The notes below the pieces were generated by a model, which saw only the letters and a program-made list of their open reading frames with translations, ran no database searches and was not told where the DNA came from. DNA of 64,000 nt, taken from the NCBI GenBank assembly GCA_000092065.1, contig CP000584.1, one strand, 5' to 3'. Each line of letters opens with the position of its first letter. Position 1 is the first letter of the stretch. The DNA is from Ostreococcus lucimarinus. Taxonomy: Eukaryota. A program made the position numbers and the translations under genes. Positions 8,114 through 63,833 of the stretch are shown piece after piece.

Positions 8114-8244
8114 GTGCGCGATCGCGCGAGAGACGCGGATAAAGTGACGCGCGACGGGACGTTGACGCACGGCGGCGAGGACGCGAGGACGCGAGGACGC
8201 GAGGACGCGACGACGCGGGACTGACGCGCGACGCGGACGCGCAG
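8114..8244 (+). other. Intron (131 nt) of the LYR gene: GTGCGC...GGGACTGACG...CGCAG; contains (GAGGACGC)x4 at 8177-8208
   Basis: Donor GTGCGC at 8114; branch-like ACTGAC at 8220-8225; acceptor CAG at 8242-8244. Joining the flanks restores an 85-aa LYR-like ORF ending at TGA 8425-8427. Confidence 0.55.
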
Positions 8245-8427
8245 GACAATCGCACGGCGTACGTGCGCGCGAAAGCGCGAGCGGAGTACGAGAAGCACGC
8301 GAGCGCGGAGGGGGAGACGCTGGAGGAGGCGCTGCGGTTGGCGGCGGCGCAGGTGGACAACGTCGAGGCGTCGGCGGCGCATTTGACGAAGGTTTTCTCG
8401 GACGAGCGCGTGCACGCGCGGGTTTGA
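8245..8427 (+). CDS. LYR-motif protein, exon 2 (to stop)
   Basis: In-frame continuation: DNRTAYVRAKAREEYEKHASAEGETLEEALRLAAAQVDNVEASAAHLTKVFSDERVHARV*. Confidence 0.55.
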   Translation, partial: DNRTAYVRAKARAEYEKHASAEGETLEEALRLAAAQVDNVEASAAHLTKVFSDERVHARV

Positions 8428-8437
8428 GACGAACGTG

Positions 8438-9004
8438 ATGGCGACCGACGCGAGCGAGACGATGGTGGAGGACGCGGTGGGCGCAGAGGATGGGTTCGAG
8501 GAGTTACACGTGTTTGATTTCGATGGGACGCTCGTGGACACGCCGACGCCGAAGGAAGGGATGAGATCGTACGAGATCGCCACGGGTCGAGAGTGGCCGT
8601 TTCAGGGATGGTGGGGACGTGCGGAGTCGTTGGAACCGCCGTTGACGATGGCGTCGGGGCCGGCGTTGGATGAGTACAGGGAGAGCGCGGCGAACGCGAC
8701 GGTGGCGCGCGTCATGATGACGGGTCGCCGCGGCAAACTCAGGCAATCCGTGGAGGCGGTGATGCGGTCGTTCGACATCAACTGTCACGAACACATTTTT
8801 AACTGCACGGGACACGACACGTTGTCGTACAAGCAAAATGAACTGAGGCGGTTGGTGAAAAAGTACAAGCCGAAGCGAGTGCGAATTTGGGAAGACCGCA
8901 TATCGCACGCGCGAGAGTTTCAAGACATGGACGTCGAGTTTCGCTCTACGCACGGCGTGGAGTCTTGGCGCGTGACGCTCGTCGAGCCGAGCAACGATTT
9001 CTAA
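8438..9004 (+). CDS. HAD-superfamily phosphatase-like small protein
   Basis: HAD motif I 'VFDFDGTLVDTP'; 189 aa. The ORF-track start at 8435 is GTG; the ATG is at 8438. Confidence 0.5.
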   Translation: MATDASETMVEDAVGAEDGFEELHVFDFDGTLVDTPTPKEGMRSYEIATGREWPFQGWWGRAESLEPPLTMASGPALDEYRESAANATVARVMMTGRRGKLRQSVEAVMRSFDINCHEHIFNCTGHDTLSYKQNELRRLVKKYKPKRVRIWEDRISHAREFQDMDVEFRSTHGVESWRVTLVEPSNDF

Positions 9005-9048
9005 CTATTAGCTTGTCATCCTACACAGTCTGTATTCTAATTCACGAT

Positions 9049-63000: not shown

Positions 63001-63450
63001 CGCGAGCTGCTTCGCCTGCGCCGCCTGCTGCGCCTTGGTGAGCTTTTTACCCTTCGGCGGCGCCTTAGCTCGTCCCTTGGGCGCCGCCGCCGTCGCTGCC
63101 TCAGGCATCATCGAACCCACACCCTGCGTCGGAATCATCGTCCCAGGTGGCACGCCGGCCATCATTTGCGAAGATCCTCCCGCGTATTGCGATCCTTGCG
63201 CCGCCGCCGCGCCGCGCAAAATCGGCGCCCCATTCGGTAACATACCGTTACCCCCCATCATCTGTCCCGCCGCGGGTTGCGCCATATTCCCCCCTAATCC
63301 CCCTGGGAACAACGCTCCCATCTGCTGACGCGAAGCCGCCGCAGCGCTCCCGCCTCCTCTTCCGCCCTGTTGCGCGCCTTGACGAGAAATCATGATGCGC
63401 GCGACGGCTTGAAGTCGCGCCTCCAACGTCGCCTTGTCGCAATACTCATC
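60091..63450 (-). CDS. CBP/p300-type histone acetyltransferase (plant HAC-like), main 3' exon: TAZ1, PHD, KAT11 HAT, ZZ, TAZ2
   Basis: TAZ1 '[38 protein letters not shown]'. PHD '[13 protein letters not shown]'. HAT core '[16 protein letters not shown]...[20 protein letters not shown]'. ZZ '[28 protein letters not shown]'. TAZ2 '[32 protein letters not shown]'. Exon begins after the acceptor TAG at 63451-63453. Confidence 0.9.
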   Translation of the reverse strand, partial: [1119 protein letters not shown]

Positions 63451-63565
63451 CTACGATCGCAAAAACACCCCCACAATCCAACCGTCAGTCCTCGAACGTC
63501 ATCACCCGCGCGCGCGCGCGCCTCAACCGCCTCGTTCGTCGCGCGCGCCGATCGAAACCGCGCAC
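63451..63565 (-). other. HAC intron (115 nt): GTGCGCGGTTTCGATCGGCG...GAGGACTGACGG...CGTAG
   Basis: Joins '...VYRGARSK' to '[20 protein letters not shown]', restoring KIX helix 3 (CBP 'SRDEYYHLLAEKIYKI'). Shares the 'TCGATCGGCG' block with the ISY1 intron 5' end. Confidence 0.7.
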
Positions 63566-63677
63566 CTTGCTCCGCGCTCCGCGATACACCGCCTCCTCCA
63601 ATCGCAGCACAAAGTCCGGTAGCTTGTGTTTCCACTCGTTCGTCAATTCCGGTTTCCTTTGTTTAAACACTCGCAAT
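63566..63677 (-). CDS. HAC exon encoding KIX-domain middle part (I)LRVFKQRKPELTNEWKHKLPDFVLRLEEAVYRGARSK
   Basis: Phase-consistent with its flanks (1-nt codon completion at the 5' end, phase 0 at the 3' end). Matches KIX 'LVAYAKKVEGDMYESANSR'. Confidence 0.7.
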
Positions 63678-63833
63678 CTGCGCACCGTTCGCGCGTCCAC
63701 GCCGTCGTCAGTCGTCCCTTCGCCTGAGCGCGCGTTCGCGCGCGTCTTCGCGACCTAAGCCTCGTCCGCGAGATCCGCGTTCGCGCCTCCCCCCCCCGCG
63801 TCGCCTCGCGCGCCGTTCGCCTTCGCGACGCAC
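63678..63833 (-). other. HAC intron (156 nt): GTGCGTCGCG...GCTTAGGTCGCGAAGACGCGCGCGAACG...GACGACTGACGACGG...GTGCGCAG
   Basis: Donor follows '...QRKILIQH(AT)'. Shares 'CTTAGGT.G..GAAG..GCGCGAACG..ACGACTGACGACG' with the ISY1 intron. Confidence 0.65.

Follow-up and report, generated by a model that had tools for sequence, protein, structure and literature searches.

Eight introns in a 64,000-nt stretch of Ostreococcus lucimarinus DNA (contig CP000584.1; the whole stretch is referred to as the window) share a 5' splice site, a branch motif and a GC-rich body. An earlier note on this DNA, made from the sequence alone, attributed this uniformity to an introner-like family, i.e. to copies of one mobile intron sequence. 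The question was whether the introns resemble each other as copies or only as introns of the same host. At 59% GC, the window is part of a nuclear chromosome of strain CCE9901, whose 930,724-bp record shows synteny with O. tauri record CAID01000004.2. With a probability of roughly 0.93, the eight are ordinary U2-type (GT-AG) canonical introns of the Mamiellophyceae, their common features being known splice signals plus GC-rich filler, and not introner copies.

Exact GT..AG units were found at all eight proposed positions (Table 1). The 5' splice site was GTGCGC in five introns and GTGCGT in three, and both the length range of 92-169 nt and the high GC content (0.66-0.77, versus 0.59 in the window) were as originally described. 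The extended branch motif near the acceptor was recovered in all eight as GACTGACG; ACGACTGAC was present in five. The branch A was located 18-34 nt from the intron 3' end. All acceptors were YAG, in each case the first YAG downstream of GACTGACG, and CGCAG formed the 3' end in 5/8. AG was depleted between branch and acceptor (1/190 positions versus 40/766 upstream, p=0.002). A polypyrimidine tract was absent from the eight introns (pyrimidine fraction 0.33-0.45, T 7.9% overall), and the HAC second intron had the sole T-rich tail.

Table 1. Introns of the window with their splice signals (positions in the window; 3' end, last nucleotides of the intron).
Gene and intron	Position	Strand	Length (nt)	Phase	5' splice site	GACTGACG	3' end
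LYR-family gene	8114..8244	+	131	0, after codon 26	GTGCGC	8219-8226	CGCAG
WD40 ('RBBP5') gene	10463..10587	+	125		GTGCGT	10564-10571	TCGCAG
ISY1	19759..19895	+	137	0, after codon 9	GTGCGT	19858-19865	CGCAG
UBC12 (E2 M), second intron	26636..26727	-	92	1	GTGCGC	26662-26669	CGCAG
UBC12, first intron	26816..26966	-	151	0, after codon 8	GTGCGC	26842-26849	ACAG
Uncharacterized 215-aa protein ('KOW-like')	33892..34060	+	169	0, after codon 14	GTGCGC	34031-34038	ACAG
HAC (CBP-type acetyltransferase), second intron (HACa)	63451..63565	-	115	0, after codon 73	GTGCGC	63483-63490	GTAG
HAC, first intron (HACb)	63678..63833	-	156	2, in codon 36	GTGCGT	63706-63713	CGCAG

The claim that these are genuine spliced introns was supported. 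Both HAC introns were precisely missing from the full-length cDNA contigs L011 and L012 (SRR28369050, SRR28369223), and L011 bears a SMART oligo and a poly(A) tail. Direct transcript evidence was confined to these two introns (2/8). Removal of four others yielded three proteins identical to O. lucimarinus CCE9901 RefSeq entries, namely ISY1 (271 aa, XP_001417282.1), UBC12 with both introns removed (185 aa, XP_001417542.1) and the 215-aa protein (XP_001417288.1). The Pfam Isy1 alignment (residues 1-253) additionally runs over the ISY1 junction. The LYR and WD40 introns are backed by cross-species conservation and the logic of the reading frame, with a Pfam alignment as further support for LYR; neither the spliced LYR model (86 aa) nor the WD40 models (444 and 456 aa) had a match in the protein collection searched. 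The Complex1_LYR alignment covered residues 8-59 of the spliced LYR product and therefore spans the splice junction, and the identical position carries an intron in a second Ostreococcus lineage.

Two gene-level assignments were revised. The WD40 intron had been placed in the 5'UTR of an 'RBBP5' gene. Its upstream exon, ATGTTTCGCGCGTTCGAAC, was 100% conserved and in frame in the second lineage, whose orthologous intron has an ACTAAC branch. The intron most likely lies in coding sequence, in phase 1 and following the conserved start MFRAFE, rather than in the 5'UTR. The label 'KOW-like' was without Pfam support, as no Pfam KOW match was obtained in the 215-aa protein.

The signature was enriched beyond chance, as had been claimed. 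GACTGACG occurred 12 times in the window versus 4.12 expected, a count reached in 0/100 shuffles, and 8 of the 12 occurrences were intronic, with introns making up 0.8% of the strand-sequence. The loose full regular expression returned 8 matches in the window versus 3.65 per dinucleotide-shuffled window (shuffle maximum 11) and is weak as a discriminator when used alone. Every strict pattern match within the window was a real intron, and the motif is usable as the gene-finding key it was proposed to be. The shuffled counts, the 169 GTGCGY sites in the window and chance matches of the generic full intron pattern in at least 120 stretches of viral contigs would all suit a reading in which some of the matches are unspliced coincidences of GC-rich DNA. 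Against it stand the exact RefSeq protein identity or cDNA that fixes 6/8, the conserved upstream exon or position behind WD40 and LYR together with the LYR Pfam alignment, and the presence of GACTGACG with a first-YAG acceptor in 8/8. The probability of that reading is practically nil.

Counterparts were found for 8/8 introns in O. tauri and/or two other Ostreococcus lineages, 7/8 at the identical position. The ISY1 position was identical in O. tauri and the second lineage, with diverged intron bodies. Both UBC12 positions were identical in O. tauri (first intron 114 nt, second 66 nt), and two other lineages had introns at both HAC positions. The O. tauri orthologue of the 215-aa protein gene has an N-terminal intron of the form GTACGC...GGACTGACGACG...CAG, and its position was only approximately alignable. 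Flanking exons were 0.67-0.89 identical to their orthologues (0.36-0.53 in the 215-aa protein gene). Orthologous intron bodies were 0.19-0.66 identical, near shuffled values. The orthologues' 5' splice sites were GTGCGN, GTACGN or GTAAGT; those of the orthologous HAC first introns were GTACGT and GTAAGT. Four environmental O. lucimarinus contigs covered the LYR, WD40 and ISY1 introns, and no presence/absence polymorphism was seen for these three. The length of the ISY1 intron was polymorphic among environmental contigs, and (GAAC)n and (GAC)n lengths differed between them.

Similarity between intron bodies was assessed against dinucleotide shuffles and order 1-4 Markov sequences. Reversed sequences were dropped as a null because reversal alters oriented di- and trinucleotide content and thereby inflates the 'real' scores. 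The internal blocks cited as evidence beyond the splice signals are present as strings, but the pairs concerned did not align above chance (ISY1-HACb, z=0.4; LYR-UBC12b, z=0.1; ISY1-HACa, z=2.0, uncorrected for multiple pairs). The best local score among the eight bodies was 57 (null maximum 57.1). Pairwise local scores averaged 35.1 versus 31.9 in dinucleotide shuffles (p about 0.02). Global body identity was 0.636 versus 0.617 shuffled, and its maximum of 0.755 (versus 0.733 +/- 0.016) falls short of the clustering standard for introner elements, i.e. 80% identity over 80% of the length. Different introns had 79 7-mers in common, versus 97 in shuffles. Both occurrences of CTTAGGT in the window are intronic. 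Its recurrence had been called improbable by chance, but a T-containing shared 7-mer of this kind appeared in 20-90% of shuffles, depending on the definition used (P=0.2-0.9).

TRF reported tandem repeats in 7/8 bodies, and HACa had only a short (GC)n run. The LYR intron holds (GCGAGGAC)x6, the ISY1 intron (GC)n, (CGAA)n and (ACG)n microsatellites, and the UBC12 first intron (GCGACGAAGGAT)x3 plus 27/28-nt repeats. An all-against-all BLASTN search of the bodies gave many 'significant' matches on both strands and at several offsets. Such a pattern typifies runs of (CG)n and (GCGCGAC)n, and the E-values are accordingly unreliable. For 6/8 bodies the best BLAST match within the window was a CG-rich segment outside introns.

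A wider sample comprised 29 non-orthologous introns, 21 of them from metagenome-derived loci; it was not genome-wide. Because of the viral chance matches to the generic pattern, the metagenome scan was run with a longer pattern consisting of branch site and 3' end only, and about half of its matches were chance bacterial ones. The best alignments in the 29-intron set were about 36-64 columns of (GCGCGAC)n-type repeats, and the upper tail was heavier than that of a pooled Markov null (maximum 102 versus about 67). Both this tail and the excess in mean score among the eight are interpreted as reflecting locally clustered (GCGCGAC)n-type repeats. Sequence clustering beyond low-complexity GC content was not found in the 29 introns sampled. 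The bodies of the eight introns are non-homologous, alike only in composition and low complexity.

These results weigh heavily against the proposal of an introner-like family. Its attraction lies in the GTGCGY and GACTGACG signals common to all eight, in their similar length and composition, in the restriction of CTTAGGT to introns within the window, and in the branch motif of the Micromonas introner elements IE-C/ABC-IE, which is identical to GACTGACG (PMC3879977). Micromonas introner elements (D-IE/IE-A, ABC-IE/IE-C, E2-IE) are likewise spliceosomal, inserted in the sense strand and equipped with GYRaGu/GacUGAC/CAG signals. They show high full-length identity in hundreds to thousands of copies, whereas the bodies studied here were at the composition null. 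Their positions are lineage-specific and polymorphic for presence or absence, whereas the eight introns have counterparts in other lineages and the three covered by contigs were not polymorphic. As read from the gene models, none of the eight lies beyond codon 75; Micromonas introner elements and fungal ILEs, in contrast, favour gene centres (PMC3879977). IE-C is about 64-67 nt long, compared with 92-169 nt here. The published introner surveys consulted name no introners in Ostreococcus, which is an absence of report only. Taken as copies of one recently active mobile sequence, the introns would be extremely improbable.

The canonical reading agrees with published descriptions. For O. lucimarinus introns outside chromosome 2, Irimia & Roy (2008) reported the 5' consensus GTGCGTG, ACTGAC in 87.2% and GACTGACG in 66.5%, CGCAG at the 3' end and 20-35 nt between branch and AG (PMC2483917). 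The present introns match this class in species, 5' consensus, branch motif, CGCAG preference and spacing. GACTGACG was found in 8/8 here versus 66.5% genome-wide, which is unremarkable given the small sample. Apart from HACa with its T-rich tail and GTAG end, there was no substantive difference. Since the constrained signature was described for O. lucimarinus in 2008, it is already known, and the yeast-like branch site is not new, nor is it 'otherwise unusual', as the earlier note had put it. Canonical introns of Micromonas have an AG|GTGCGT donor and an NCTGAC branch (Verhelst et al. 2013), and the class was reported for all Mamiellophyceae (PMC3879977). As here, they are few per gene, biased towards the 5' end, often at positions common between species and without similarity to one another (PMC3879977); their branch-to-acceptor distance is 43-52 nt compared with 18-34 nt here (PMC3879977). 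Conserved positions, lack of similarity and 5' location are published hallmarks that separate canonical introns from introner elements (PMC3879977). Introns of hemiascomycete yeasts resemble the present ones in their near-invariant branch, strong 5' site, low number and 5'-biased positions. They differ in using GTATGT/TACTAAC, whereas GTGCGY/GACTGACG is used here in GC-rich, T-poor introns.

A different origin has a small chance of being correct, namely that the canonical introns of Ostreococcus and the Mamiellophyceae derive from an ancient introner burst whose bodies were randomised until only the splice signals were left. It would fit the identity of GACTGACG in Micromonas IE-C and in Ostreococcus canonical introns, and decay to regular introns has been proposed as the fate of fungal introner-like elements (PMC4540971). 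Moreover, the present data date the introns no further back than the Ostreococcus genus. However, residual body homology was found neither among the eight introns nor in the 29-intron set. Identical signals are expected in any case because every intron has to work with the spliceosome of its host, and those signals are all that the different introner families of Micromonas have in common. The strong 5' bias is consistent with loss-dominated retention of old introns, and according to Simmons et al. the introner elements of Micromonas are at odds with a decay to regular introns. There is a very slim chance of a more specific history, in which the uniform signals are the fossil of an invasion by an IE-C-like introner in the ancestor shared by Ostreococcus and Micromonas, with the bodies erased by slippage and GC drift. 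In that case, 'canonical' Mamiellophyceae introns would be decayed introners and not ancestral eukaryotic introns.

On the preferred reading as canonical introns, the splice signals of this intron-poor genome are unusually strongly constrained; Irimia & Roy described convergence of intron-poor genomes on strong signals (PMC2483917). The signals comprise the GTGCGY 5' site, the GACTGACG branch and the first YAG about 20-35 nt downstream, usually CGCAG, and the class would correspond to the canonical introns outside the low-GC, intron-dense outlier region, chromosome 2 in O. lucimarinus. By analogy with the conserved mechanism, the 5' site is presumably read by U1 and U6, while SF1/BBP would recognize the branch first, followed by the U2 GUAGUA box, the A of ACUGAC being bulged. 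Scanning to the first AG past the branch would pick the 3' site. The snRNA and protein contacts behind the extended motif are likewise deduced from that mechanism; for the C(-5)/R(-4) preference at the 3' end, Irimia & Roy found no snRNA explanation (PMC2483917). The sequence between the signals is most likely unconstrained filler that drifts with the GC/CpG-rich, sense-strand T-poor composition of the genome and expands or contracts through tandem-repeat slippage. Composition drift and slippage together would account for the superficial likeness among the introns.

Additional features of the introns were considered and rejected. Selected RNA structure or pairing of intron ends gave no signal, with folding z-scores of -1.2 to +1.9 in five introns. 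An Rfam search for small RNAs hosted in introns gave 0 matches across the whole window at gathering thresholds. A telo-box in the HAC first intron was suggested by the sharing of GGGGTTTAGGGCTTG among orthologues, yet TTTAGGG/TTAGGG was at chance frequency in the window. As read from the listing, TAGG is present in about 3 of the 29 sampled introns.

Little of this is new; the work amounts to an independent rediscovery, from raw sequence, of the constrained splice signals of Ostreococcus, a textbook case of convergence on strong yeast-like signals in intron-poor genomes. It also cautions that short common blocks and BLAST E-values in GC-rich low-complexity DNA are no evidence for a repeat family. 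For annotation, the GTGCGY...GACTGACG...YAG rule found every checkable intron in the window. Two improvements of the gene models are suggested, namely an upstream MFRAFE start for WD40 and a structure of two exons for LYR. A relaxed scan for overlooked introns returned one further candidate at 44460-44787 (+), which faces an ORF on the minus strand and is probably spurious.

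The eight introns listed in the table are members of the known canonical intron class of Ostreococcus and the Mamiellophyceae, and are not introner elements (IEs, repeated mobile intron sequences), an introner-like family having been proposed in the earlier note. Every testable defining feature of the canonical class was found. Among EST-confirmed O. lucimarinus introns (Irimia & Roy, 2008, PMC2483917), those outside chromosome 2 carried ACTGAC in 87.2% and GACTGACG in 66.5% of cases, the 'atypical consensus GTGCGTG' (4.8 bits) at the 5' site, CGCAG as the preferred 3' end, and ~20-35 bp between branch and AG. 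Canonical introns with donor AG|GTGCGT and branch site NCTGAC were described for Micromonas by Verhelst et al. (2013, PMC3879977), who stated this class for all Mamiellophyceae. Given these two descriptions, the earlier observation in full is a known genome-wide property of the host splicing signals; the branch site, which had been called otherwise unusual, was already published for both genera. The earlier note correctly rediscovered what was a known feature, and the introner interpretation placed on it is unsupported.

Introns of the window and probable start of the WD40 gene
Feature	Position	Strand	Remarks
LYR intron	8114-8244	+	
WD40 gene start: first exon and sequence after the intron	10444-10462 and 10588-10604	+	probable ATG at 10444; MFRAFEP...; intron phase 1
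WD40 ('RBBP5') intron	10463-10587	+	
ISY1 intron	19759-19895	+	
UBC12 intron	26636-26727	-	second intron
UBC12b intron	26816-26966	-	first intron
KOW (215-aa gene) intron	33892-34060	+	
HACa intron	63451-63565	-	second intron
HACb intron	63678-63833	-	first intron

All eight stretches were recovered exactly as originally described, including coordinates, donor, branch motif and YAG end. The donor was GTGCGC in five introns and GTGCGT in three; ACTGAC and GACTGACG were present in every intron, and ACGACTGAC in five. Lengths were 92-169 nt, with 18-34 nt from the branch A to the 3' end, and the sense strand comprised 43% G, 30% C, 19% A and 8% T. No polypyrimidine tract was found between branch site and acceptor (pyrimidine fraction 0.33-0.45). 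A strict regular expression matched exactly the eight introns and nothing else in the window; by itself this is weak evidence, because dinucleotide-shuffled windows averaged 3.65 matches, with a maximum of 11. The branch motif GACTGACG, unlike the regular expression, is strong evidence: its enrichment was confirmed with 12 copies observed versus 4.1 expected, a count reached in 0 of 100 shuffles. Of these copies, eight lie in intron sequence (1,076 nt in total); the remaining four correspond to chance expectation. AG occurred at 1 of 190 positions between ACTGAC and the acceptor, compared to 40 of 766 upstream (p=0.002), and the acceptor was always the first YAG downstream of ACTGAC. Both results are expected if ACTGAC is the true branch site and the acceptor is located by scanning.

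For six of the introns, cDNA or annotated proteins confirm these borders; the LYR and WD40 introns are supported by conservation. Splicing of ISY1, UBC12 (both introns) and the 215-aa gene yielded proteins identical letter for letter to XP_001417282.1, XP_001417542.1 and XP_001417288.1 of O. lucimarinus CCE9901, respectively, all on one record of 930,724 bp. For HAC, the spliced product of 1192 aa was encoded uninterrupted on two independent contigs from SRA runs SRR28369050 and SRR28369223. Contig L011 carries a SMART template-switch oligo at its start and poly(A) at its end, so both contigs are full-length cDNAs. Aligned with the window, they fall into three blocks (64000-63834, 63677-63565 and 63452-59991), and both HAC introns are thereby removed at the predicted GT..AG borders. 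In LYR, the Pfam Complex1_LYR alignment spans the splice junction, and an intron is present at the same codon in a second Ostreococcus lineage.

For comparison of intron bodies, the 5' hexamer and branch region were removed and the eight bodies were locally aligned, with shuffled sets as null. The best local score was 57, versus a shuffled-set maximum of 57.1. The three pairs claimed to share internal blocks did not stand out (ISY1-HACb, z=0.4; LYR-UBC12b, z=0.1; ISY1-HACa, z=2.0 before correction for 28 pairs), and different introns had 79 7-mers in common, fewer than the 97 in shuffles. Sharing of a T-containing 7-mer like CTTAGGT had been considered unlikely by chance; it arose in 20-90% of shuffled sets, according to how such a 7-mer was defined. 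Global identity of whole introns averaged 0.636 (shuffled, 0.617) with a maximum of 0.755 (shuffled, 0.733), which is below the clustering threshold of 80% identity and 80% length that defines Micromonas introner elements. According to TRF, seven of the eight bodies consist largely of short tandem repeats, among them (GCGAGGAC)x6 in LYR, a 20-mer x3.8 in WD40 and a 12-mer x3 in UBC12b; HACa contains a short (GC)n run only. When the rest of the window was searched by BLAST, six introns matched a non-intron CG-rich segment best, and not another intron. A wider sample was taken from one metagenome scan with a pattern of branch site and 3' end only. It gave at least 120 matches; among the matches listed, about half were chance bacterial ones, and from the remainder 21 non-orthologous introns similar in style were retained, resulting in a 29-intron set with the eight. 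For this set, third-/fourth-order Markov models of pooled composition accounted for the mean score (30.8-31.4 versus 31.7 observed), and the heavier upper tail consisted of ~36-64-column alignments of (GCGCGAC)n or GAGACGCG-type repeats.

All eight introns have counterparts in other lineages, seven of them at identical positions. O. tauri has introns at identical positions for ISY1 and both UBC12 introns; its 215-aa gene has an N-terminal intron as well. The LYR, WD40 and ISY1 introns were found at the same positions in the second Ostreococcus lineage (81-90% amino-acid identity), and both HAC introns in two lineages with HAC proteins 84% and 73% identical. Orthologue identity was 0.67-0.89 in flanking exons (without KOW) and 0.19-0.66 in bodies, modestly above shuffled values. 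In environmental O. lucimarinus contigs (L001, L002, L004), the ISY1 intron measured 137 or 130 nt; the shorter form lacks one (GAAC) and one (GAC) unit with signals unchanged, which indicates ongoing microsatellite slippage. All eight introns lie inside the first 75 codons of the gene models. By published criteria, canonical introns are recognised by positional conservation, bodies without similarity and a bias towards the 5' end, and introner elements by conserved sequence at novel positions, preferentially near the gene centre (PMC3879977). Within the sets compared, the eight introns showed none of three defining introner features: sequence identity among copies, lineage-specific positions and a central position bias. 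Their sole link to introners is the GACTGACG motif of Micromonas IE-C, which is expected since any intron must suit a Mamiellophyceae spliceosome; different introner families have only splice signals in common (Simmons et al.). That canonical introns descend from ancient, fully decayed introners is very improbable, and nothing in the data supports it.

What the data show directly is that the motifs are enriched, that other species retain them, and that AG is avoided between branch site and acceptor. From the conserved spliceosome, GUGCGU would be read by U1 and U6; with standard U1, positions +1, +2, +5 and +6 could pair canonically, with a wobble at +3 and a mismatch at +4. ACUGAC would pair with the U2 GUAGUA box, a G-U pair adjoining the bulged A, and the flanking G/ACG...G extension may contact SF1/BBP or U2. 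The 3'-terminal preference for C(-5)/R(-4) has no snRNA explanation in Irimia & Roy either (PMC2483917). Folding of five introns gave no sign of selected RNA structure (z-scores -1.2 to +1.9), and an Rfam search of the window at gathering thresholds returned no matches. Splice signals were retained among orthologues with variation, the branch being ACTGAC or ACTAAC and the donor GTGCGT, GTACGT/GTACGC or GTAAGT (L253, L255 and L009 versus the window). In the HAC first intron the donor follows T content and GC, O. lucimarinus being most GC-rich and T-poor with GTGCG, which suggests that the 'atypical' donor partly tracks compositional drift.

The WD40 intron, previously placed in the 5'UTR, is most likely a coding intron, and the gene probably begins at the ATG given in the table. 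The 19 nt before the intron (ATGTTTCGCGCGTTCGAAC) are 100% conserved in the second lineage, sequence farther upstream is not, and splicing preserves the frame in both. Both candidate models (444 and 456 aa) were absent from the protein collection searched; therefore, the public model may differ.

The block GGGGTTTAGGGCTTG, with the plant-type telomere repeat (telo-box) TTTAGGG inside it, is common to the HAC first-intron orthologues of two other Ostreococcus lineages (L255, ~1010-1030; L253, ~1470-1490); the window has GGCTTAGGTCG at the equivalent place (~63745-63760, minus strand). The block could be residual orthology, or an intronic element specific to this gene. Across the window, TTTAGGG showed no enrichment. 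In all three lineages (window, L255, L253), the HAC second intron departs from the rest of its class: T makes up 22%, the acceptor is preceded by a T-rich tail, and the intron ends in GTAG or ACAG. The 73%-identity lineage has a CTAAC branch.

A relaxed scan gave one extra candidate at 44460-44787 (plus strand; GTGCGC...CCTGACGA...GCAG, 322-328 nt, 12% T), opposite the minus-strand ORF 44413-45234 and probably a chance match. The 'KOW-like' label of XP_001417288.1 (215 aa; 33135-34700, plus strand) was not upheld, as no significant Pfam match was found; the protein carries an internally duplicated motif of the form YIGKG(R/K)YV..DAKK(Y/F)AGRDN..TGGW.GGE. GC is 0.53-0.57 at 48000-62000, compared to 0.58-0.65 across most of the window to the left, and this region coincides with very long ORFs, e.g. 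47588-56512 (2974 aa).
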